Positions 1-12,029 of a stretch of 64,000 bases of DNA are shown in pieces (position 1 is the first letter of the stretch; each line of letters starts with the position of its first letter). The position numbers and the translations under genes are program-made. The stretch spans positions 1-64,000 of the IMG/VR virus record IMGVR_UViG_3300021963_009388; one strand, 5' to 3'. This DNA comes from a virus. The notes under the pieces were generated by a model. The model worked only from the letters and a program-made list of their open reading frames with translations. It did no database searches and was not told where the DNA came from.

Positions 1-152
1 AATGACTTGTAGATTCTGTTTAGGTTATCATGTATGTTTCTGGCTATCATTTTTGTGTTGCTTTAGGAATTACGAGTTTGTACTCTTAGTCCCAACAGCT
101 CTGGCCGCCAGGGCCATGGAGTACCACATAGAACTAGCACTGAGGAGAAAAG

Positions 153-512
153 ATGACGGAGAAGCTTAGACATATAGAAGTTACAGACGAGCTTAGCGAA
201 AAGATCTTGAGTCTATTAGAAAAAATTCCAGAGCTAAGATCATGCGCAGTAGTGCTAGATTGGAACGTTGCTCAAAACGACTTTCCATACGGCCTAATGA
301 TAGGTAGACAGGGGTCAGTAAGGCTTCCTGGAGAGCTGCACTCATTAATGATTCAGACAGCTAAGTTGTCTAAGCACCAAGCTGACGTGATGCTGGAAAT
401 TCTGACTAATGTCGATAAGATGGCTGAGGAGCTAAAAAATAAAATAACAACTCTTAAAGAAGAGCTTATCGTGCTTGAGTCTAGTAAAGTGGCCTTAACG
501 CAGAAGAATTAA
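153..512 (+). CDS. hypothetical protein, C-terminal coiled coil
   Basis: 119 aa ORF; GAGGAG Shine-Dalgarno upstream. Confidence 0.7.
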   Translation: MTEKLRHIEVTDELSEKILSLLEKIPELRSCAVVLDWNVAQNDFPYGLMIGRQGSVRLPGELHSLMIQTAKLSKHQADVMLEILTNVDKMAEELKNKITTLKEELIVLESSKVALTQKN

Positions 513-513
513 T

Positions 514-720
514 ATGAAAAAAAGCAGGCAAAAGAAAGCTGAAAGGATTATAATATTGAGCAGCAGAAGAATGGCTTCTAGGCTGTTCAATAAACATTTC
601 TCTAACGACCAATTCGTAGATGAGGATTGGTGTGAAAGGGTCAGGACGCTGTATGAACAAAGGTACAAGCTGCCAGACAGGTTGCTAAGGGCATATGACC
701 TTGCTAGCCTAGTCCGGTAA
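514..720 (+). CDS. hypothetical protein
   Basis: 68 aa ORF directly after the previous stop. Confidence 0.55.
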   Translation: MKKSRQKKAERIIILSSRRMASRLFNKHFSNDQFVDEDWCERVRTLYEQRYKLPDRLLRAYDLASLVR

Positions 721-732
721 GGATAGGTTAAA

Positions 733-897
733 ATGCGCAGGGTAAAAGTAAAATCAGTTGAGCTCTTAAAGTTCAACAAGTATTTGGTAACGCCATCGTG
801 TAACCACTCATTCGTAAATGATACGAGTGTGAATAAACTAAAAGAAGTACCTGACTACATCAATTGTGCCAGGTGCAATCCACCCGAAAAGCCTTAA
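733..897 (+). CDS. small putative Zn-binding protein
   Basis: Manual translation MRRVKVK...SCNHSF...CARCNPPEKP (54 aa), CxH plus CxxC. Confidence 0.5.
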   Translation: MRRVKVKSVELLKFNKYLVTPSCNHSFVNDTSVNKLKEVPDYINCARCNPPEKP

Positions 898-981
898 CTC
901 TGTTTTCAGGCAGGTACAGAGATAATGGCTTTGAGCCTCAGCCCTAAAAAGCTGGGGCTTATTTTATTTAAAGGAAGCAAA

Positions 982-1158
982 ATGAAAAATACACTAACCG
1001 ACTCTAAAGTAAGGGCTAAGATTAAAAAGGATAAAAAACAAAAGCTTTTTACAATGGTATTTAAAATAGAAGGAACTACGCCTCTGCTCGTAGACGGTAC
1101 GCCTCTCCGATGTTGTACATACTGCGAGCCTAACAGCATTGCGCACAAGCATGGATGA
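982..1158 (+). pseudogene. truncated paralog of the RAMP-like gene at 9381
   Basis: FKIEGTTPLLV matches FTVEGTTPLLV of 9381..10130; AAGGA upstream; similarity ends right after the motif. Confidence 0.45.
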
Positions 1159-1414
1159 TTTTAACCAATGGGCAGTAGGCAAATCCCTAGAACAGATGCT
1201 TACTATCTTCTTAACAAACCGTTTAATAAGAATAGGCGACAAAGACATATGGCCGTCATCCATCGTAGTTAACGGATGCCACTATGAGTTCGTATTCAGA
1301 GTGGGCAACGAGCTAGATGAAGATAGAGGGTGGTGGTCTTTTAAAGATGAGCCTATGGTGTACAGCATCATGGCTACTGAAGAAGACATGCTAAGAGTAA
1401 GGGAAAAATTATGA
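1151..1414 (+). CDS. hypothetical protein
   Basis: MDDFNQW... ORF; its stop overlaps the first MIRK unit (ATGA). Confidence 0.6.
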   Translation: MDDFNQWAVGKSLEQMLTIFLTNRLIRIGDKDIWPSSIVVNGCHYEFVFRVGNELDEDRGWWSFKDEPMVYSIMATEEDMLRVREKL

Positions 1415-1590
1415 TAAGAAAAACAAATGCACATCCTATTTCTAAAGAATGGGAAAAATCTCGACTGTGTTCATGGATTAGTGGGTGGAGCACGTTTGAT
1501 TACAAATCAGCAAACGGAAAATTAAATTACACGTTTTCTGCACTAAACAATTGGTTTCATCACTCTCGTTGTTGGGGGGAGAGACCATGA
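1411..1590 (+). CDS. S/W-rich peptide 1 (MIRKTNAHP...CWGERP)
   Basis: Manual translation, 59 aa; ATGA overlaps at both ends. Confidence 0.7.
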   Translation: MIRKTNAHPISKEWEKSRLCSWISGWSTFDYKSANGKLNYTFSALNNWFHHSRCWGERP

Positions 1591-1790
1591 TAAGAAAAGT
1601 AATCGAATCTTCATCTTGGGGCTGGACTAGATCTGACCGAATTAGTTCGGCTCTGTCTAAATACGGCCGACGTACTATTCATTCTATTTGTTGGACTATG
1701 GCTAGAGATTCGTTTTGGGTTCACTTCGGGGCTTGGTCTAAGTCTAAGCATCAGTCTAGGTCGGGCCCTTGGTATGAAAGGGCTAGATAA
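1587..1790 (+). CDS. S/W-rich peptide 2 (MIRKVIESSSWGW...)
   Basis: ORF track, internal MIRK start; paralog of unit at 7800. Confidence 0.75.
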   Translation: MIRKVIESSSWGWTRSDRISSALSKYGRRTIHSICWTMARDSFWVHFGAWSKSKHQSRSGPWYERAR

Positions 1791-1939
1791 TGATAAGAAA
1801 AACACAACCTGCGTCTGTGGCTTGGGCTTGGTCTAGGTCTGGGTCTAGTTCTTGGTCTTGGTCTTGGCCTGGGTTTAATTCTTGGTCTTGGTCTAAGTCT
1901 AGGACTAATTCTTGGTGCTGGGAAAGGACCTCTCGATAA
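1790..1939 (+). CDS. S/W-rich peptide 3 (MIRKTQPASVAWAWSRSGSSSWSWSW...)
   Basis: Manual translation, 49 aa; TAATG overlap. Confidence 0.7.
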   Translation: MIRKTQPASVAWAWSRSGSSSWSWSWPGFNSWSWSKSRTNSWCWERTSR

Positions 1940-1989
1940 TAAGAAAAACAGTATGGGGTAAATCTAAGAGTTGGAGGATAGGAAGATGA
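1936..1989 (+). pseudogene. degenerate unit 4 (ATG>ATA; IIRKTVWGKSKSWRIGR)
   Basis: Start mutated; reads as the 5' end of unit 2237 joined to the 3' end of unit 2484 at AAATCTAAG. Confidence 0.55.
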
Positions 1990-2240
1990 GAATGAAATCA
2001 GTGTGGTGTGGGTCTAGGTCTTGGTCTAAGTCTAGCTTGTCTACTCCTATGATTGAGCCTCGCGCGTCTCAGTCTTGGTCTAGGGCTGGATGTACACCTG
2101 AGGCTTGGTCTGAGTTTGGCTCTTGGTCTAGAGCTTTTCATAAATGTAGGTATACGTGGTCTAATTGTTGGAGCCGTCTTGGGAATAGACTTGCGTATGC
2201 ATGCTGGCAAAAATCTTGGAATTGGAGAATACACCAATGA
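1986..2240 (+). CDS. S/W-rich peptide 5 (MRMKSVWCGSRSW...)
   Basis: ORF track; ATGA overlap. Confidence 0.7.
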   Translation: MRMKSVWCGSRSWSKSSLSTPMIEPRASQSWSRAGCTPEAWSEFGSWSRAFHKCRYTWSNCWSRLGNRLAYACWQKSWNWRIHQ

Positions 2241-2422
2241 TAAGAAAAACAGTATGGGGTAAATCTAAGTCTTGGAGCTGGGCGGAGGCCATATCGGGGA
2301 CTGGGTCTTGGGCTTGGTCTCGGACTTCGTTTAACTCTTGGTTTAGGCCAGGGGTGGTACCTTGGTCTAGGTCTTGGGTAAATCTAAAAGGAAATTCCGG
2401 CGCTTGGAGAATACACCAATGA
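2237..2422 (+). CDS. S/W-rich peptide 6 (MIRKTVWGKSKSW...)
   Basis: ORF track, internal MIRK start. Confidence 0.75.
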   Translation: MIRKTVWGKSKSWSWAEAISGTGSWAWSRTSFNSWFRPGVVPWSRSWVNLKGNSGAWRIHQ

Positions 2423-2487
2423 TAAGAAAAACAGGGTCTTGGTCTGGGTCTTGGTCTGGGTCTAAATGTTGGGAGAGCAGACTATGA
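2419..2487 (+). CDS. S/W-rich peptide 7 (MIRKTGSWSGSWSGSKCWESRL)
   Basis: Manual translation, 22 aa; coupled at both ends. Confidence 0.6.
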   Translation: MIRKTGSWSGSWSGSKCWESRL

Positions 2488-2669
2488 TAAGAAAAACAGT
2501 ATGGTTTGGGGCTGCGTCTTGGACTGACTCTTGGCGTGAGTCTGATTCTTGGTCTAAGTCTTTTAGCTGGTATAGATCTAGGGCTGGGTGCTGGGATGGG
2601 TCCAATTCTTGGAGTTGGACTTCTTCTAGATGCTTGGATAAATCTAAGAGTTGGGGGATAGGCCGATGA
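2484..2669 (+). CDS. S/W-rich peptide 8 (MIRKTVWFGAASW...)
   Basis: ORF track; paralog of unit at 8170. Confidence 0.75.
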   Translation: MIRKTVWFGAASWTDSWRESDSWSKSFSWYRSRAGCWDGSNSWSWTSSRCLDKSKSWGIGR

Positions 2670-2869
2670 TAAGAAAAATAAGGACCCATGAATCAAAGTG
2701 CTGGACAGATAGAAGACCTACATCATTCTCAGCGAACTATTACTTTATAGATCGTTCATGGAACTGGGGGTGGCAGCATTGTATGTCATCTCCTTGGTTA
2801 GGTATAGGCGGCTGGTGCAATAGTCTAAGCTCAGGAGGGTGGAGTTTAAACTATTGGAGAAACATTTGA
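2666..2869 (+). CDS. S/W-rich peptide 9 (MIRKIRTHESKCW...)
   Basis: ORF track, internal MIRK start. Confidence 0.75.
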   Translation: MIRKIRTHESKCWTDRRPTSFSANYYFIDRSWNWGWQHCMSSPWLGIGGWCNSLSSGGWSLNYWRNI

Positions 2870-3060
2870 TGATAAGAAAAATAGTCATATCCGGGTCCGT
2901 TTCATGGACAAATGATTTTGTCCGCAATAACAGGTGTTTTTTAAGCGACATGATGGCGGCATTTTCGTACATGAACACATCCACTAGGTCTGGAATTGGA
3001 AGTCAGAGCAACCGTGGTTGGTCTGTTTTAAGATCGCTGTCGTGGTCCAAACACCGATAA
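2869..3060 (+). CDS. S/W-rich peptide 10 (MIRKIVISGSVSW...)
   Basis: ORF track; TGATG overlap. Confidence 0.7.
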   Translation: MIRKIVISGSVSWTNDFVRNNRCFLSDMMAAFSYMNTSTRSGIGSQSNRGWSVLRSLSWSKHR

Positions 3061-3077
3061 CCTAACTAGGAGAACCA

Positions 3078-3299
3078 ATGATCAAAAGTACAGTTGGAAA
3101 CACTATGGCCCAAGGGTATAGCCGTGCATGGGGAACATTAAGTCGTACATGGGGCTTAACAAGCAGTGGTTCGTTTACAGAATCTAAAGTGCGTTCTACT
3201 ACAAAACTGTGGCGCGGCTGTAGAGGAGTAGTATGGTCTAGTTTAACTATATCTTCTTCGTCATGGAGCAGTAGATTTTCAGGGTCCGTAAGGAGCTAA
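3078..3299 (+). CDS. S/W-rich peptide 11 (MIKSTVG...)
   Basis: ORF track; AGGAG SD. Confidence 0.7.
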   Translation: MIKSTVGNTMAQGYSRAWGTLSRTWGLTSSGSFTESKVRSTTKLWRGCRGVVWSSLTISSSSWSSRFSGSVRS

Positions 3300-3300
3300 C

Positions 3301-3495
3301 ATGATAAGAAAACTTTTGTATCCATTGCATCAAAGTAAGATGTCCGTCTGCTGGACTAAGGACAAAAAGCTGAATAGGCTCTGGTCAGAAAACACGACCA
3401 TATCTGGACACAAGCATAGTGGTATAACGTGGGCTTGGGCTCACTTCAATCGCTTGCCTTGGTCCATATTAGAACCTTGGAGAGTTATTTCATGA
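3301..3495 (+). CDS. S/W-rich peptide 12 (MIRKLLYP...)
   Basis: ORF track; AAGGAG SD. Confidence 0.7.
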   Translation: MIRKLLYPLHQSKMSVCWTKDKKLNRLWSENTTISGHKHSGITWAWAHFNRLPWSILEPWRVIS

Positions 3496-3647
3496 TGATA
3501 AGAAGAAGAATACACCCACTTGATTCATCTAAATCATGGTCTGATCCCTGGTGTTACTCTTTGTCCGGGTCTGAAGATTATGCTTACTCTGTGTCTTGGT
3601 CGAATTGGTGTCAATGGGGTAAAAATAGTCACTCGGTTGGTTTTTAA
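3492..3647 (+). CDS. S/W-rich peptide 13 (MMIRRRIHP...SKSWSDPWCYS)
   Basis: ORF track; similar to unit 14. Confidence 0.7.
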   Translation: MMIRRRIHPLDSSKSWSDPWCYSLSGSEDYAYSVSWSNWCQWGKNSHSVGF

Positions 3648-3669
3648 ATAGGCTTTGGAGAGGTCGCTA

Positions 3670-3849
3670 ATGATACTAAAACGCAAAGCATACTTAATTG
3701 GAGACGTCTCCAAATCTTGGTCTGAGCCTTATTCTTACTCTGTGGCTTGGGCGGATGACTGGAGATGGAGTAGAGATTGGAAGAACGGTTGGTTTTTAAA
3801 CACGTTACGAGCCTACTATAGGCAGTCTAAAGGAGGACCTCGTGGTTGA
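3670..3849 (+). CDS. S/W-rich peptide 14 (MILKRKAY...SKSWSEPYSYS)
   Basis: ORF track; GGAGAGG SD. Confidence 0.7.
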   Translation: MILKRKAYLIGDVSKSWSEPYSYSVAWADDWRWSRDWKNGWFLNTLRAYYRQSKGGPRG

Positions 3850-4084
3850 ATGGAAACCTACTGAATATGATATAGGATGGCTGGACTCAGTCTTTAGAAT
3901 ATTAAAAGAAGGCGGGTCATGGATAGCTCCTATCACAGGGCAGATGTTTGAAAAACGAGGAAACCTTTTCGTTCTAATGAACGAAGATACTCCTGACACA
4001 AGACGCATCTTTGAGAGAAGCCAAGTAATAGGGCCTAAGATTGGTATTAAAGTTATTAAACTATCGGAGGTGGATAGTGCTTAG
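3842..4084 (+). CDS. hypothetical globular protein embedded in the array
   Basis: 80 aa of ordinary composition; AGGAGG SD. Confidence 0.7.
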   Translation: MVEWKPTEYDIGWLDSVFRILKEGGSWIAPITGQMFEKRGNLFVLMNEDTPDTRRIFERSQVIGPKIGIKVIKLSEVDSA

Positions 4085-4241
4085 ATCCCGTATGCATATG
4101 TCTCAATCCTGGTCTTGTGGGCGAAGCGCATCAAGAGCAGCATCAGATTTTTGGGGAGTATCCAATATTTTTGCTGGATGCTACTCTTGGAGCTGGGTAA
4201 ATAACTTGTCGATTTCAGAAAATTTTATGGAGTTTGAATGA
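4077..4241 (+). CDS. S/W-rich peptide 15 (MLRSRMHMSQSW...)
   Basis: GTG start after GGAGG; ATGA overlap with the next unit. Confidence 0.55.
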   Translation: MLRSRMHMSQSWSCGRSASRAASDFWGVSNIFAGCYSWSWVNNLSISENFMEFE

Positions 4242-4435
4242 TTAGAAGAACAGCAACAATCCCAGCTAGTTGGTTTGGTGCTTCTAATGCGTCCTGGGCT
4301 GTACTCCATATAGCAACATGGGGAAGGCCGTCATCGCCAAGGTTTCAATCAACTTCCCATTCACAAAGCTGGTATAGGTCTAGCAGCTGGGAAGATGATG
4401 GTTCTGCTAGTTACAATTGGAAATTAAGGAGGTAG
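4238..4435 (+). CDS. S/W-rich peptide 16 (MIRRTATIP...)
   Basis: ORF track. Confidence 0.7.
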   Translation: MIRRTATIPASWFGASNASWAVLHIATWGRPSSPRFQSTSHSQSWYRSSSWEDDGSASYNWKLRR

Positions 4436-4436
4436 T

Positions 4437-5033
4437 ATGAAAAACAAAGGATATGAAGCTTGGGTGGCGCGACTCAAGTTCTTCAACGGGGAATTCAATT
4501 TTGGCCCCGTTAAGCGCGTCTTAAATGAAGACGGGCGACTGCACTGCGACACGGGTCCAGCGTATGTTAGTCCTACTCGTATTATGTGGTATAAGAACGG
4601 CAGGCAGCACGGAATGGACGCCGACAAGTTCGGCAGTATTCTGTACTATTACGAGGGGGTGCGTATTCCTCCACATTTCTTTACCAAACCAGAGGATGTC
4701 ACTGTAGAGGAGGTCTTAAGGCATCCTAACGCAGAAGTAAAATATGTTGGTATGAAGATAGTTGGGCTGGACAACATCATGTCTATGCCTACAACAAAAG
4801 TAGTGCATAGAGACGTGGATCAGTTCGGCAGAGAAAGAGTTCTCTTTCAGATCCCAAAGATCTTTGAGGAACCAACTCTTTATGTTAAAGTTGTTAATTC
4901 TACGGCGGAGCCAGATGGTAGTTTTAAAAATTACTTTCTGTGCGTCCCGCCAAACGTGAAAACGTGTGTCGAGGCGGTGGCGTGGACAAACTATATGAAG
5001 GCAGATAAGTATGCTCCTTCACAAGAATCTTAG
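4437..5033 (+). CDS. DUF6745-like protein
   Basis: GRLHCDTGPA...WYKNG repeats and C-terminal VVNSTAEPDGSFKNYFLCVPP...EAVAWT. Confidence 0.65.
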   Translation: MKNKGYEAWVARLKFFNGEFNFGPVKRVLNEDGRLHCDTGPAYVSPTRIMWYKNGRQHGMDADKFGSILYYYEGVRIPPHFFTKPEDVTVEEVLRHPNAEVKYVGMKIVGLDNIMSMPTTKVVHRDVDQFGRERVLFQIPKIFEEPTLYVKVVNSTAEPDGSFKNYFLCVPPNVKTCVEAVAWTNYMKADKYAPSQES

Positions 5034-5054
5034 TTTTAATCAAAGGAATTAGTT

Positions 5055-5381
5055 ATGAAGAAGTTTCAAGCGCGTCAGGGTGATATTTTCTTTAGGGTTG
5101 TTAAGAAGCCAGCGGGCTTAGCTAAGCTAAAGCCATTGGGCAGTAAGATATTGGCGTTCGGCGAGGTGACTGGCCACAGTCATCAAATTACTTCAGCAAA
5201 TGAAGTGGGTTCTTTTGTAGATGAGAAAGGAGATATCTATCTCTTCTCTGCAGAGGAGACTGTCGTGGGTCATGACGAGCACTCAAATATTACGCTCCCT
5301 AAGGGATCGTGGGTGTGCGTGACACGTCAGCGAGAGTATGATCCGCTAGCTGCTGAGAAAGAGCGAAAGGTAGCAGACTAG
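5055..5381 (+). CDS. conserved phage protein with RQGD / GEVTGHSH / HDEH / RQREY motifs (putative metal-binding)
   Basis: Motif pattern recalled from small proteins encoded beside DUF6745 genes. Confidence 0.7.
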   Translation: MKKFQARQGDIFFRVVKKPAGLAKLKPLGSKILAFGEVTGHSHQITSANEVGSFVDEKGDIYLFSAEETVVGHDEHSNITLPKGSWVCVTRQREYDPLAAEKERKVAD

Positions 5382-5620
5382 TGATAAGGAAAGCACTATT
5401 TGGAAACTCGTATAACTGGAGCTTATCAAGCTCCAGTTATAACGTTTCAGAAGTAAGAGATACATTCTACGGATCAACTACTTCGTTCTCTTGGCCTAAC
5501 TGTCCTTGGATGTTTTCCACTAGCTGGTCTTCTTCTGGACTAGCCTGGTCATGGAATTGGTCAGGTGGAGTGCATACATCTTGGGGTTGGAAAGAAGGAA
5601 ATGCAGTGTGGGACAGTTAA
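5381..5620 (+). CDS. S/W-rich peptide 17 (MIRKALFGNSYNW...)
   Basis: GTG start overlapping the previous TAG. Confidence 0.7.
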   Translation: MIRKALFGNSYNWSLSSSSYNVSEVRDTFYGSTTSFSWPNCPWMFSTSWSSSGLAWSWNWSGGVHTSWGWKEGNAVWDS

Positions 5621-5676
5621 GGGTGGAGTCTAAGTAATTAAAATATTGTTAGCTATATAGACAAGTTTAGCTTACG

Positions 5677-5707
5677 GGGGTAGCAGATGTTCTGCTGCCC
5701 CTTTTTT
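5677..5707 (+). terminator. rho-independent terminator
   Basis: GGGGTAGCAGA-TGT-TCTGCTGCCCC followed by T6. Confidence 0.7.
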
Positions 5708-5736
5708 GTTTGAATCACATTCAAGGAGTTGTAATT

Positions 5737-6054
5737 ATGGCTAAGGTTAAAAGCAAAGTGTCTTTAGTTGAGATCGATGGCGCAGCTGCAGCTAGCATGG
5801 CGCAAGTGGCACAGCAGTTTCTTGGGCAGCCGGTAGCGGTGTTATGTGCGCGGTACAACTACCGTGGGATTCTATCTCACGTGGGTGAAGATTGCTTGGT
5901 GCTTGCGCAAGCAAGAGCTGTCGAGACTTCTGGCGCTTCTAGTCAAGAAACACCGAACACTGAAGATCCGATTGGATCTTCTGTGATCATCTCCCTCGGT
6001 GCAGTCGAAATTATTTATCAACCAAGATGGTGCTTTGCACCATTGGATGCGTAA
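5737..6054 (+). CDS. putative Sm/LSm-like beta-barrel protein
   Basis: FLGQPVAVLCARYNYRGILSHVGEDCLVLAQA resembles the Sm1 motif; AAGGAG SD. Confidence 0.55.
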   Translation: MAKVKSKVSLVEIDGAAAASMAQVAQQFLGQPVAVLCARYNYRGILSHVGEDCLVLAQARAVETSGASSQETPNTEDPIGSSVIISLGAVEIIYQPRWCFAPLDA

Positions 6055-6302
6055 TGAGGACGCATACTAGACCGGGAAGGCCTTTTGACAACCCAATTCT
6101 AGGCCCGACTTTTTCGTGGACGCAGGATAAGTTACATGGCTGGCCCTACCCTGCTAAGTCCTGCGAATGGGCAAGGGGAGTGAGATTTAATAGGGCTTGG
6201 AAATCAGCTGAGTTTCTATCCATATCAACACTGAATAGGGACTCAAGCTATTCTTGGTCTAAGGGAATCCGAGGGTCTATAAAGACAAGGAACGGAGAAT
6301 GA
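6054..6302 (+). CDS. S/W-rich peptide 18 (MRTHTRPG...)
   Basis: TAATG overlap; W-rich. Confidence 0.6.
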   Translation: MRTHTRPGRPFDNPILGPTFSWTQDKLHGWPYPAKSCEWARGVRFNRAWKSAEFLSISTLNRDSSYSWSKGIRGSIKTRNGE

Positions 6303-6472
6303 TAAGGAAAATAGTACACGCTAGGACCAGATCTTGGGCTAATTATACGTATCAATCTTACTCTGGAACTTGGATCAAACCTGGTTGTCCTTGGGGAATA
6401 AATATGCCTTGGTCTTGGTCTTGGTCTTGGTGTAGACCTTGGAGTATGGAATCTTGGAGGACACCCCGATGA
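6299..6472 (+). CDS. S/W-rich peptide 19 (MIRKIVHARTRSW...PWSWSWSWC)
   Basis: Manual translation, 57 aa. Confidence 0.7.
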   Translation: MIRKIVHARTRSWANYTYQSYSGTWIKPGCPWGINMPWSWSWSWCRPWSMESWRTPR

Positions 6473-6714
6473 TAAGAAAAATAAGAAGAAGCACTGGAAT
6501 TGGAAAAGACTGCGAGGTTTCTAGTCTTTGGTCTAAGAGTTGGACTCTATCTGAGTCTGGGCGCCCAGGTGAGTTCAGTTCTAGCAATTGGGCTCAGTCG
6601 GAGGCTTTTCCTAGATATAACACAGAAAGGCACTTGTCTGAGTCTTCGACATCTTGGCGTTATAACCGGCATGACTCTTGGTATGACTTTTGGCATTGGA
6701 AGGATAACACATGA
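6469..6714 (+). CDS. S/W-rich peptide 20 (MIRKIRRSTG...)
   Basis: ORF track. Confidence 0.7.
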   Translation: MIRKIRRSTGIGKDCEVSSLWSKSWTLSESGRPGEFSSSNWAQSEAFPRYNTERHLSESSTSWRYNRHDSWYDFWHWKDNT

Positions 6715-6893
6715 TAAGAAACGCATGGACTGGGTCATCATACGCTTGGTCTACTTCTGGATACACGTCATGGGGCTTAACTAAGTATCGCCCTTCTCTA
6801 ATGCAGTCTGACCATTGGAATCATAATTGGTGTTTCAGTGGATGTTGGGCTGAAGATACAGACATGTCAGGCTCTTGGAGGATGCACATGTGA
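6711..6893 (+). CDS. S/W-rich peptide 21 (MIRNAWTGSS...)
   Basis: ORF track. Confidence 0.7.
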   Translation: MIRNAWTGSSYAWSTSGYTSWGLTKYRPSLMQSDHWNHNWCFSGCWAEDTDMSGSWRMHM

Positions 6894-7114
6894 TAAGAAG
6901 AGCATTGCTCGGTAAATCTGGTTCTTGGATTAAATTTCGATCTGAGTCTGAGTTTTTGTACTCAACAATTTGCTCCCAAGCTTGGAGTATGCCCTATGAT
7001 GGGGCTAATGCTTGGACTAGCTCTTGGCGTAAGTCTTCGAGTTGGGTTGGAAGAAGGTTTGGCTCCAGGTTTGACTCCAGGCCTGACTCCAGGTCTTGGA
7101 GGCATCAAATATGA
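6890..7114 (+). CDS. S/W-rich peptide 22 (MIRRALLGKSGSW...)
   Basis: GTG start with GTGA overlap; paralog of unit at 8525. Confidence 0.7.
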   Translation: MIRRALLGKSGSWIKFRSESEFLYSTICSQAWSMPYDGANAWTSSWRKSSSWVGRRFGSRFDSRPDSRSWRHQI

Positions 7115-7299
7115 TAAGAAGACCAGTGACAACAAATGGGCGCTCCCAGTGTTGGGCTAGAGATCAAGAAATGTCTTGGAGCGAAAGAAGGTATACGCCT
7201 TGGCCGCGTTATGCAGAGTGCTGGATACTGGAGTGGTGCTGGAGTGGGCTTTGGGAAACTGATGGAACCTACTCGGAGTTATGGGGGGAAAATATATGA
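7111..7299 (+). CDS. S/W-rich peptide 23 (MIRRPVTT...)
   Basis: ORF track. Confidence 0.7.
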   Translation: MIRRPVTTNGRSQCWARDQEMSWSERRYTPWPRYAECWILEWCWSGLWETDGTYSELWGENI

Positions 7300-7490
7300 T
7301 AATGATAATGAAATGTCTACCTGACGCTAGGCTCCGAGATAGGCCCATCTCCCAGTCTTGGACTCTAAACCGGCATTGGTCTAGGGCTATGTTCTTGCCT
7401 TGGTCCAGCATCAATGTTTGGTTTTGGTCTGATTCTTGGAGTATAGACGAGACCTGCTCAGATTCTTGGATGCGGAGGAATAACGAATGA
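7296..7490 (+). CDS. S/W-rich peptide 24 (MIMIMKCL...)
   Basis: ORF track. Confidence 0.65.
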   Translation: MIMIMKCLPDARLRDRPISQSWTLNRHWSRAMFLPWSSINVWFWSDSWSIDETCSDSWMRRNNE

Positions 7491-7642
7491 TAAGAAGATT
7501 TATATTTCCTAAGTCTGAGTCTTGGTCTCAAAACGGGAGTTGGGGTTCCAACTCTGGGCTTAGAATTTATAGCTCGGCTTGGAGCATAGAAGAATTCTGG
7601 TCTACGTGTTGGGCTATGGAGCGAGACTGGAGTAATAAATGA
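7487..7642 (+). CDS. S/W-rich peptide 25 (MIRRFIFPKSESW...)
   Basis: Manual translation, 51 aa. Confidence 0.7.
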   Translation: MIRRFIFPKSESWSQNGSWGSNSGLRIYSSAWSIEEFWSTCWAMERDWSNK

Positions 7643-7803
7643 TAAGAAAAGCGTTGTCTAGTTCTTGGTCTAGGTCTAAGTCTAGCTCTTGGTATAGTGC
7701 TAGGTCTTGGCCTGTGCATTTGTCTTGGTCTAGGTCTATGTCTAGGTCTATGTCTTGGTCTTGGTCTTGGTATGGGGATAGTCCTTGGAGGGCACACAGA
7801 TGA
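7639..7803 (+). CDS. S/W-rich peptide 26 (MIRKALSSSWSRSKS...)
   Basis: Manual translation, 54 aa. Confidence 0.7.
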   Translation: MIRKALSSSWSRSKSSSWYSARSWPVHLSWSRSMSRSMSWSWSWYGDSPWRAHR

Positions 7804-8006
7804 TAAGAAAAGCAAGTGAACATGGGTCTTGGAGCTGGACTAGATCTGACCGCCTTAGTTCAGATATGTTTAGCCCCCACTCTGGTATTCATTCTATTTG
7901 TTGGGCTATGACTAGGGATTCGTTTTGGACTCGCTTCGGGGCTTGGTGTAAGTCTAGGCATCGATCTGAGTCTGGCCCTTGGTATGAAAGGACTCGTAAA
8001 TGGTAA
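7800..8006 (+). CDS. S/W-rich peptide 27 (MIRKASEHGSWSW...)
   Basis: ORF track; paralog of unit at 1587. Confidence 0.75.
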   Translation: MIRKASEHGSWSWTRSDRLSSDMFSPHSGIHSICWAMTRDSFWTRFGAWCKSRHRSESGPWYERTRKW

Positions 8007-8173
8007 GAAAAACAAAATGTATTTTTGCTACGACTTTTTCTAAAGGTTGCGCTAGAGCTTATTCTTGGTCTAAAAGTTTTCCTAGGAATGGGTCTAGGGT
8101 TTGGTATAAGTTCGAGTCTGGGTCTTGGACTAATACTTGGGAAAAGTCTAGATGCTGGAGAAGCTCTCGATGA
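8000..8173 (+). CDS. S/W-rich peptide 28 (MVRKTKCIF...)
   Basis: Manual translation, 57 aa. Confidence 0.7.
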   Translation: MVRKTKCIFATTFSKGCARAYSWSKSFPRNGSRVWYKFESGSWTNTWEKSRCWRSSR

Positions 8174-8374
8174 TAAGAAAAGCAGTATGGCTTGGGGCTG
8201 CGGCTTGGGGCTGCGGCTTGGTCTGAGTCTTGGCGTGAGTCTGAATCTTGGGTCGAAGGTGAAAGATGGCCTCAATATAGATTTAGGGCTGATTTACTTG
8301 ATGTGTCTAAATCCTGGAGTCGGGATAGGACTCGGTATTGGAGTAGGTCTTTAAATTGGAGTATACGACGATGA
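8170..8374 (+). pseudogene. unit 29, frameshifted by a 13-nt tandem duplication
   Basis: GGCTTGGGGCTGC x2 (8189-8214); removing one copy restores MIRKAVWLGAAAWSESWRES... Confidence 0.7.
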
Positions 8375-8520
8375 TAAGAAAAGCTAACAACGGCTATCCC
8401 GTCTGGGATTGGCCTGGCTCTATAAGCTGGAAAAGGCCTTCGGCTAAATCGTCTTCTTGGTCTAGGTGCTGGGCTCTATCTTCTGTGTGGCGTACACGTA
8501 ACCCTAACCGTTGGGGATAA
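8371..8520 (+). CDS. S/W-rich peptide 30 (MIRKANNGYPVW...)
   Basis: Manual translation, 49 aa. Confidence 0.7.
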   Translation: MIRKANNGYPVWDWPGSISWKRPSAKSSSWSRCWALSSVWRTRNPNRWG

Positions 8521-8524
8521 ACAA

Positions 8525-8725
8525 ATGATGAAAAACACGTTATCTGCTAGGTCTAATTCTTGGATTTAATTTTGGAGCGAGTCTGAGTCTTTGTCATCGG
8601 TAATTTGCTCCCAAGCTTGGAGTGTTCCCTATGCTGCGTCTAGGATGTGGGCTAGCTCTTGGTGCGAGTCTTCGGGTTGGGGTAGAAGAAATTTTGACTC
8701 CAAGTCTTGGAGTAGTAGCTTATGA
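8525..8725 (+). pseudogene. unit 31 with in-frame TAA at 8567
   Basis: Paralog at 6890 has AAA at the equivalent codon; the frame continues to the TGA overlapping the next ATG. Confidence 0.65.
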
Positions 8726-8889
8726 TAAGAAAAACAGGGTGTTGGTATAAATATAAGTCTTGGTCTAAGTCTAGGTCTTGGTTTCGGAGTAAATCGGCGT
8801 CTGTGTTTGGGTCTTTGTTCTTACCTTGGTCTAGGTCTTGGCATTGGAATAACTCTATAGGTAACTTTAGCTCTAGCCCTTGGGAGTAA
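8722..8889 (+). CDS. S/W-rich peptide 32 (MIRKTGCWYKYKSW...)
   Basis: Manual translation, 55 aa. Confidence 0.7.
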   Translation: MIRKTGCWYKYKSWSKSRSWFRSKSASVFGSLFLPWSRSWHWNNSIGNFSSSPWE

Positions 8890-8895
8890 TAACGA

Positions 8896-9021
8896 ATGAT
8901 TAGAAAAGCGTGGAAAGGGCCTAACTCGTCTAGGTCTTGGTATTTTTGGAATTGGAGTCTAGGTCTCACCTGGTCTAGATGTTGGTCTATGGAACTGGTC
9001 TGGTGGAAAAAACAACGATGA
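8896..9021 (+). CDS. S/W-rich peptide 33 (MIRKAWKGP...)
   Basis: Manual translation, 41 aa. Confidence 0.65.
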   Translation: MIRKAWKGPNSSRSWYFWNWSLGLTWSRCWSMELVWWKKQR

Positions 9022-10676: not shown

Positions 10677-10764
10677 CGTCTAAACCAGCTGTTCGGCTAC
10701 GGGTGATTTAATGCAGGCGCAGCCATAGTTCATAAAATTACGACTGTGCGGGCTGGTTTAGACG
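10677..10764 (+). ncRNA. structured leader upstream of the pentamer array
   Basis: Perfect 13-bp stem CGTCTAAACCAGC/GCTGGTTTAGACG enclosing an imperfect inner hairpin. Confidence 0.45.
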
Positions 10765-10787
10765 TTTATTTATACTGATAGCAACAA

Positions 10788-11255
10788 GGCAGGCGTGGTC
10801 CGGCGAGGCCGGTCGAGGCGTGGCGAGGCAGGCACGGCGGGGTCTGACGAGGCAGCTCGGGGCGGGGCGAGGCATGGCAGGCGAGGCGTGGCGCGGTCCG
10901 GCTGCGATCGGCTTGGCAGGCTAGGTGAGGCGCGGCCTGTTCGGGCGAAGCGCGGCAGGCATGGTGCAGTTTGGCGTGGTTAGGATCGGCAGGCGGGGCG
11001 AGGGCTGGCGCGGCGTGGCCAGGCGAGGCATGGCAGGCGAGGTTAGGCCGGGTGAGGTTAGGCGAGGTGCGGCACGGCAGGCTAGGCAAGGCGCTGTCCG
11101 GCTGGGCTCGGAATGGCGAGGCAGGCGTGGTACGGCAGGCGAGGCGTGGCGGAGCCCGGTGAGGTGCGGCAGGGCAGGCACGGCCAGGTGTGGCACGGCC
11201 CGGAGAGGCCTGGCAGGCACGGCAAGGCACGGCTAGGCTGTGTTGGACTAGGGCA
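10788..11255 (+). repeat. GGY-NN pentamer array, 12 units delimited by GGCA (putative guide-RNA array)
   Basis: Delimiters at 10788, 10827, 10876, 10915, 10954, 10988, 11032, 11076, 11120, 11134, 11173, 11212; every spacing is 4+5n. Confidence 0.85.
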
Positions 11256-11354
11256 GTTCAACATAGCTAAGGTACTCAGTAACCACGAGATCATCTATCG
11301 TCTACGATGTGAGGTAGGTGGGTTATTGGGTATCACTTTTTAAAGGAGCAATTT

Positions 11355-11834
11355 ATGAAATATATTATGGGTCTAATAGTTTGTATTACTGTGTACGTAA
11401 ACAGCGTTAAAGCGGGTTGAGGAACCGCTGAGCAAAATGTGACCCGTGCGGTCATAACTAGAGTTACAGATGCAGACATATATTATATGAGAAGTATCAT
11501 CAACTCGATGCTGGTAAATAATACGGCAGCGATTGTAGAGCAGGCTTTAAAGTCTTCAGATTTTAGGATCAAGGCCGCGGGATGTGTTTTGGCTCGCAGG
11601 CTCGGTAAAGAGTACGTAGAGGATTTATTTGATGGTCTAGTAGATGATAATGAGCTGGTTAGGCAGGTTAGCAGAGAGAGCCTGATGATCATAAACCACT
11701 TCTACACAAAGAAAAAAATAGACTTCGGGCCTTGGCCTGGAGAGCAGAATAACGTTAATGCGTGTGCTAGTCAGTCTTTATGGAAGGCGCACTTTAGAAC
11801 AGTAGAAAACAATCAAAACAAGGAGAAGAAGTAA
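11355..11834 (+). CDS. secreted HEAT-like protein with in-frame TGA at 11418 (candidate selenoprotein)
   Basis: AAGGAG SD and signal-peptide-like MKYIMGLIVCITVYVNSVKAG, then TGA, then GTAEQNV in frame with ORF 11439..11834. Confidence 0.55.
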
Positions 11835-12029
11835 ATGGATATTAAAGAAAAAGAATTGGCTCTAAACACTATAGCTTCACTACCTTCGAAGATCGAAGTG
11901 GCTAAGAACACCAAGGGCTTCAACTTCACTGTTGAGGTACGGTGCAAAGACGGCGCTGAGCTAGAAGCAGTAGATAGGCTGGAGACTATCGTTAAGTCTC
12001 TTAACGAAAAGTTTAAATCAGCAGAATAG
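11835..12029 (+). CDS. hypothetical protein
   Basis: 64 aa ORF, coupled to the previous gene. Confidence 0.6.
   Translation: MDIKEKELALNTIASLPSKIEVAKNTKGFNFTVEVRCKDGAELEAVDRLETIVKSLNEKFKSAE

Follow-up and report, generated by a model that had tools for sequence, protein, structure and literature searches.

The IMG/VR virus genome analysed here, which belongs to an uncultured freshwater phage, carries a gene in which the codons of a predicted signal peptide are followed by an in-frame TGA, and this TGA stands at the same codon in all 25 related loci that could be read as DNA (23 distinct sequence contexts). The gene probably encodes a secreted selenoprotein that depends on SelB and a SECIS element and is made with the machinery of the host, with the reservation that selenocysteine (Sec) insertion has not been demonstrated and that the host has not been identified. 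A phage-encoded selenoprotein had been proposed for this position before, and the proposal is now supported but not proven: the comparison with homologues that might have refuted it was passed, the hairpin behind the UGA is conserved and distant relatives carry Cys, whereas Sec insertion itself and the sel machinery of a host are still missing from the evidence.

Conservation of the in-frame TGA and translation across it

The window is a stretch of 64,000 nucleotides, positions 1 to 64,000 of the virus record IMGVR_UViG_3300021963_009388, which has a length of 102,495 bp, an estimated completeness of 87%, and a GC content of 43%. Nearly all large ORFs of this genome lie on the plus strand, and its replication module comprises a DNA polymerase, DnaB-like and other helicases, SbcCD, and a UvsX-like recombinase. 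No match was found in the GenBank phage collection, either by DNA or by the HEAT-like protein. Unlike the rest of the genome, positions 1–9000 of the window contain few ORFs of at least 90 aa, several of which overlap. Just upstream of the gene, a G-rich and GC-rich tract of about 500 nt (10700–11240) was observed, for which Tandem Repeats Finder gave periods of 5, 10, 15, 24, and 44 nt (GGCGA or AGGCG units) and which also lies upstream in two relatives (L001 and L002).

The features of the gene are listed in Table 1. The original prediction had described a strong Shine-Dalgarno (SD) sequence, 21 signal-peptide-like codons, a TGA at 11418, and an in-frame HEAT-like ORF lacking a good SD of its own, and each of these elements was found at its place. 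Behind the hydrophobic core, the leader reads N-S-V-K-A-G before the TGA, and the frame beyond the TGA stays open as far as the TAA at 11832–11834. An SD motif, AAGGAGCAAT, precedes the start in nearly all related loci. With table 11, only an ORF of 131 aa is called, which begins at GTG 11439 in frame with the leader; upstream of this GTG there is only GAG and no real SD.

Table 1. Positions of the gene features in the window
Feature	Position	Strand	Remarks
Shine-Dalgarno AAAGGAG	11342..11348	+	6 nt upstream of the start codon; read directly from the sequence
Start codon ATG	11355	+	opens 21 codons reading as a signal peptide
Predicted signal peptide, residues 1–20	11355..11414	+	MK n-region, 13-residue hydrophobic core, V-K-A signal peptidase I site
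Gly (GGT) and in-frame UGA (11418–11420), candidate Sec codon	11415..11420	+	predicted first two mature residues
Flexible linker, residues 23–39, containing the hairpin	11421..11471	+	AF2 pLDDT ~50; length changes in steps of 3 nt among relatives
Candidate SECIS hairpin, 7-bp stem	11438..11456	+	MFE structure; conserved core; compensatory changes
HEAT-like helical repeat domain, six helices	11472..11831	+	motifs KAAG, LVRQxSRESL, DFGP, SQxLWK
Stop codon TAA	11832..11834	+	ATG of the next gene at 11835

A word-index protein search identified 25 relatives, nearly all of which had been called at 117–131 aa with starts downstream of the TGA. The 25 loci read as DNA consist of the window, 22 close relatives (59–99% aa identity), and two loci of a distant subfamily (L023 and L024); the DNA of the close relatives derives from one IMG/VR locus (L001, 85% aa identity) and 21 freshwater metagenome loci (59–99%). 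Upstream in-frame translation of the close relatives yielded an SD, a signal peptide of 21–25 codons, [A/V/S]-K-A-G, the TGA, and [G/A]-[S/T/D]. Within the window's subfamily, K-A-G-TGA is invariant, and diverged relatives retain the signal-peptide features together with the [AVS]-K-A site. Over all loci, a signal peptide with [AVSL]-x-A-G and the TGA is present in 25 of 25. Homologues with Trp, Arg, or another residue at this position, or homologues lacking the N-terminal extension, would have refuted the selenoprotein interpretation. Neither was encountered in the 25 aligned loci, all of which have TGA: TGG, TGY, or CGA was not found at this codon in any of the 23 distinct contexts, and the extension was never missing. 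In the whole 102-kb genome, this is the only TGA that combines the hairpin pattern with a usable upstream start and long open frames on both sides.

It is highly improbable, and by now largely refuted, that TGA is a sense codon in the host (table 4 or 25) or that the window merely contains a recent nonsense mutation or a pseudogene. A changed code would account for the W given at the site in some public entries (P0025, P0026, and P0036). However, P0025 is encoded by L021, whose DNA has TGA at the site, and its gene caller had used a table with TGA=W. TGA serves as a stop elsewhere, terminating 13 of the 93 large ORFs of the genome, several of them in ATGA overlaps, and also the same gene in four relatives (L004, L019, L023, and L024). 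No tRNA genes were detected in the genome with ARAGORN, and in no second gene of the genome is an internal TGA flanked by long open frames. A stop-reassigned code was rejected on these three grounds. A nonsense mutation is ruled out by the conservation of the TGA in 25 of 25 loci and a pseudogene by this conservation together with a pN/pS of 0.06 downstream.

In public databases the family is mis-annotated, its members being either ORFs cut short at the N-terminus or proteins that show W at this codon; the selenoprotein interpretation, if true, would correct this annotation. The W appears in the records P0025, P0026, P0036, and P0077 and goes back to the TGA=W table, and most other public entries start downstream of the UGA. 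In L021, the stretch 1601–2005 departs from the family after ...MMTKKE and ends early with TAG, probably because the frame was shifted, or the assembly went wrong, close to the DFGP motif.

Several observations indicate that translation crosses the TGA. Leader and domain share one frame in all lineages despite three different linker lengths, and this frame is selected on both sides of the TGA. For the commonest lineage, represented by 16 distinct sequences, the leader had a pN/pS of 0.36 in frame as compared to 0.98 and 4.1 in the shifted frames, and pN/pS of the domain was 0.06; the leader is under purifying selection in the frame of the gene. In 11 relatives, no ATG, GTG, or TTG occurs between the TGA and the conserved D-x-x-Y-M-R that opens the domain. 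Furthermore, there would be no point in a signal peptide with a conserved AxA cleavage site unless a protein came after it. Passage through the TGA is thus deduced from the frame kept through indels, the leader pN/pS, the 11 relatives without a start, and a signal peptide in need of cargo.

The same observations bear on a reading with two cistrons, in which a hydrophobic leader or membrane peptide of 21–24 residues would end at the TGA and the HEAT-like protein would be made in the cytoplasm by downstream re-initiation. Table 11 does give two ORFs, most database entries start downstream, and GTG 11439 is available in the window. However, 11 relatives offer no canonical start ahead of the conserved residues with which the domain begins, there is no SD ahead of GTG 11439, and indels never put the two ORFs into different frames. 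No obvious use can be seen for a peptide that stops one residue beyond a conserved AxA site, and the remote homologues are single proteins consisting of signal peptide, Cys, and domain. We consider two separate cistrons improbable.

The hairpin behind the UGA

The hairpin GTGACC-CGTGC-GGTCAT, which had been described about 19–35 nt after the TGA, was located at 11438–11456. T/GTGACC (11438–11444) pairs with GGTCAT/A (11450–11456), and the loop CGTGC (11445–11449) starts 24 nt after the UGA. In the relatives, a stem of 5–7 bp with an invariant CC-NGUNN-GG core was found, the loop of which starts 21–24 nt after the UGA. When 14 distinct sequences were aligned, the columns without any variation were TGAG followed by CC, GU, and GG, where CC and GG form the two loop-closing pairs and GU occupies loop positions 2 and 3. 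From this set, RNAalifold predicts exactly the 5-bp helix. Double changes occurred at the pairs 23:37, 24:36, and 25:35 (once from C:G to U:A and twice from A:U to G:C), and 3–4 pairs covary overall. For the 7-pair version, none of 500 shuffles reached the observed covariation, and when the partner was shifted along, pairing fell from 85% to 19–51%. The covariation derives from only about four lineages.

The coding sequence around the hairpin was analysed for synonymous constraint as well. Among six representatives, 12 of 158 third codon positions are invariant, of which one is the A of the TGA and four belong to hairpin codons, and these hairpin codons encode varying amino acids (T/A, R/S, and A/V/L/S). 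The linker has a pS of 0.18 as compared to 0.49 in the domain. Since third positions are frozen and synonymous divergence of the linker is low, the constraint acts on the RNA, and the hairpin is under selection at this level.

The thermodynamic stability gives a mixed picture. The window hairpin has a minimum free energy (MFE) of −8.1 kcal/mol and is no better than its shuffled versions (z = 0.16); across the subfamily, z ranges from −1.05 to +0.6 without any significant value. An MFE of −9.2 kcal/mol was obtained for L019 and of −8.2 kcal/mol for L004. The commonest variant has a 5-bp A/U-rich stem, and for most of its members folding of 48 nt gave only −5.9 to −7.4 kcal/mol, which misses the consensus limit of −7.5 kcal/mol. 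Support for the hairpin is conservation and covariation, not stability. No matching family and no meaningful match to the hairpin was found in Rfam. A lower stem, UGAGCA:UGCUCA, was rejected, as it is confined to the commonest variant and has not been kept in the different lineages.

The published consensus for bacterial SECIS elements describes an apical loop of 3–9 nt, an upper stem of 4–16 bp, a distance of 16–37 nt from the UGA to the loop, a G within the first two nucleotides of the loop with G or U next to it on the 3' side, and an MFE of −7.5 kcal/mol or lower (PMC13188914). With a loop of 5 nt, a stem of 5–7 bp, a spacing of 21–24 nt, and a G at loop position 2 followed by U, the geometry of the hairpin lies within these ranges. 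Most of the consensus is thus fulfilled, and the suggestion of a SECIS-like element, made at first from a single sequence, has gained conservation and compensatory changes in its favour.

Distant relatives, fold, and predicted export

A profile search of 1.8 billion representatives identified 52 homologues, which are small proteins with the motifs KAAA, LVxQxAR, DFGP, and SQxxWKxW. In many of them, the signal peptide is followed by a Cys-containing segment (CxxC, CxxxxC, CC, or GCG). In secreted homologues, which are HEAT-like as well, a Cys is located at +1, at +2, or a little further behind the signal peptide, and in several remote homologues Q-C stands directly behind an AxA site, so that Cys is at +2 of the predicted mature protein and matches the Sec position in the window. 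By hhalign, the Sec subfamily was aligned to a Cys subfamily with 99.7% probability, and the U column coincided with the second of the two Cys in CxxxxC. In this run, the score of C had been used for U; with W instead, the alignment begins four columns later in the same register. Because of this scoring, the residue match of U to Cys is plausible but not independent. Two further Cys residues of the window protein, in KAAGC and CASQ, are specific to its subfamily.

A Cys-form member was also observed on an IMG/VR contig of 274,625 bp (L025, the size of a jumbo phage), where the signal peptide is followed by C-V-N-G-N-C. As this is a viral contig, phages carry the Cys form as well as the Sec form. 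A scan of viral contigs for the P0027 group gave no match.

The subfamily of P0036 is represented in some database entries by ...L-Q-A-G-W-K-D-N... and in others by downstream starts. Two IMG/VR contigs with relatives of P0036 (L023 and L024) have ...K-L-E-A-G-TGA-N-D-D... in their DNA. A 10-bp hairpin with the loop GUUU (−14.1 kcal/mol) starts 3 nt after this TGA and is followed by a second hairpin, CCGCC-GGUC-GGCGG, both lying within 3064–3125. The GUUU loop is located 13 nt after the UGA and the GGUC loop inside the range of 16–37 nt. As far as can be judged from sequence, a deeply diverged branch thus has the same arrangement of UGA and hairpin with an unrelated stem sequence.

Genes for Sec decoding were looked for as well. 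Neither tRNA-Sec nor selA, selB, or selD was found in the phage or in three related virus records, and Sec decoding must therefore rely on the machinery of the host, which is unidentified. Scans of genome contigs did not reveal a cellular copy of the gene. The distant Sec subfamily is also represented on a virus record of 116 kb, in which Rfam gave a weak match resembling tRNA-Sec at G002:C1:50968-51079 (L026; 20.8 bits with a cut-off of 47), and ARAGORN predicted no tRNA there.

All evidence for translation across the TGA would also fit with a programmed readthrough independent of selenium. A near-cognate tRNA would insert a standard residue such as Trp, Cys, or Arg, expression would be set at a low level, and the hairpin would act as a stimulator or pause site. 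That no sel genes were found in the phage, that the host is unidentified, and that the hairpin is weak are compatible with this as well. However, if the residue were unimportant, TGG or other sense codons would be expected at the site, and none was found in 23 contexts at a synonymous divergence of 0.49 in the domain. Where relatives have a sense codon at or close to this position, it encodes Cys and not Trp, and the invariant GU of the loop recurs at a SECIS-like spacing in the distant subfamily on a different stem. To our knowledge, hairpin-stimulated UGA readthrough has not been established in bacteria except for SECIS, which also counts against it. Readthrough without selenium therefore appears unlikely, though it deserves more weight than the other alternatives to a selenoprotein. 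That Sec rather than another residue is inserted is an inference.

The structure of the protein was predicted by AlphaFold from an alignment of 34 sequences (pLDDT 85, pTM 0.77), and the model consists of a signal-peptide helix, a disordered tail (residues 21–38, pLDDT ~50), and six helices with pLDDT >90. When only 12 close sequences were used, pLDDT was 48. Foldseek searches of the PDB returned only weak matches to alphaRep, HEAT, and TOG repeats (best E = 0.07). With Pfam HEAT_2 (PF13646), the window protein scored 13.5 bits and its homologue P0040 25.2 bits, both below the gathering cut-off of 27.7 bits. Generic HEAT clusters and viral GT2 clusters were obtained from the ESM Atlas, and no PHROGs family was found for the window protein. 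The weak repeat-protein matches in Foldseek, Pfam, and the Atlas point to a binding-type scaffold and not to a known enzyme fold.

A bacterial lipoprotein was also considered, as A-G-U fits positions −2 to +1 of the lipobox [LVI][ASTVI][GAS]C, but instead of the hydrophobic residue required at −3, every Sec form has K, E, or Q. Moreover, position −1 is taken by Q in several Cys relatives, and an AxA site for signal peptidase I fits better.

Proposed mechanism and comparison with known systems

In the selenoprotein interpretation, positions 11355–11834 would form one gene for a precursor of 159 residues, in which the UGA at codon 22 would be read as selenocysteine by SelB and Sec-tRNA(Sec) of the host. 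Both would be recruited by the hairpin in the coding sequence, with its loop NGUNN starting 21–24 nt after the UGA. The Sec translocon would export the precursor, and signal peptidase I would cleave it before Gly-Sec; both steps are inferred. The mature protein is predicted to expose an N-terminal Gly-Sec on a flexible tail of about 18 residues, attached to the compact HEAT-like domain. The selenol, or the thiol in the Cys relatives, might be a redox-active or metal-binding group with which the scaffold meets a target located in the envelope or the periplasm of the host. This function, in which a protein binding in the periplasm or envelope would bear a reactive selenol at its N-terminus, is no more than an inference. 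Against the selenoprotein interpretation stands that a single Sec, no nearby redox partner of the CxxU type, and a non-enzyme fold are unusual for selenoproteins.

A more far-reaching idea is that, in phages whose hosts use Sec, the N-terminal Cys of a secreted HEAT-like binder has been converted several times into Sec, which as a tethered selenol "warhead" forms a selenylsulfide with a periplasmic or envelope target of the host or binds a metal in it. This is speculative and, in our opinion, rather unlikely as it stands. If it were true, production of the exported protein would also be tied to the selenium status of the host, because without Sec-tRNA only the bare signal peptide would be made.

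If the selenoprotein interpretation itself is true, phages exploit the 21st amino acid through SelB and SECIS of their hosts, and the known selenoproteins would be joined by a family that is secreted, is not enzymatic, and has its Sec at the N-terminus of the mature protein. The gene could then also be used as a marker for host prediction, as only Sec-decoding bacteria could express it. So far, a published phage selenoprotein was not found in the literature. A review of viral recoding from 2021 lists only two poxvirus glutathione peroxidase (GPx) genes as viral selenoproteins (PMC8310308), and phages and viruses are not mentioned in a review of the prokaryotic selenoproteome from 2026 (PMC13188914).

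Bacterial SECIS genes, with E. coli fdhF as the prototype, resemble the window gene in the in-frame UGA conserved among orthologues, the hairpin immediately 3' in the coding region, the small apical loop starting with G and then U at 21–24 nt from the UGA, the existence of Cys homologues, and the use of TGA as a stop elsewhere. Unlike these, the present gene resides on a phage without sel genes, its hairpin is at the small and weak end of the model, and its product is a small secreted HEAT-like protein and no oxidoreductase, with Sec at the predicted mature position 2. The GPx genes of the poxviruses molluscum contagiosum and fowlpox are likewise virus-encoded and depend wholly on the Sec machinery of the host, and the fowlpox SECIS lies in the coding region (PMC8310308). 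However, these are viruses of eukaryotes with a SECIS of the eukaryotic type and a captured cellular GPx gene, whereas the SECIS candidate of the phage is of the bacterial type and belongs to a protein family without a characterised member.

With HEAT and alphaRep helical repeat proteins, the window protein has in common six antiparallel helices and weak matches to HEAT_2 and alphaRep/TOG, but the family has its own motifs (DFGP and SQxxWKxW), a signal peptide, and an N-terminal tail with Cys or Sec. The A1 protein of the RNA phage Qbeta is a further case in which the full-length phage product needs decoding of a UGA. In Qbeta, Trp is inserted by readthrough, the short and the long products are both functional, and neither a conserved hairpin nor Cys homologues are known to be involved, whereas the short product of the window gene would be a bare signal peptide.
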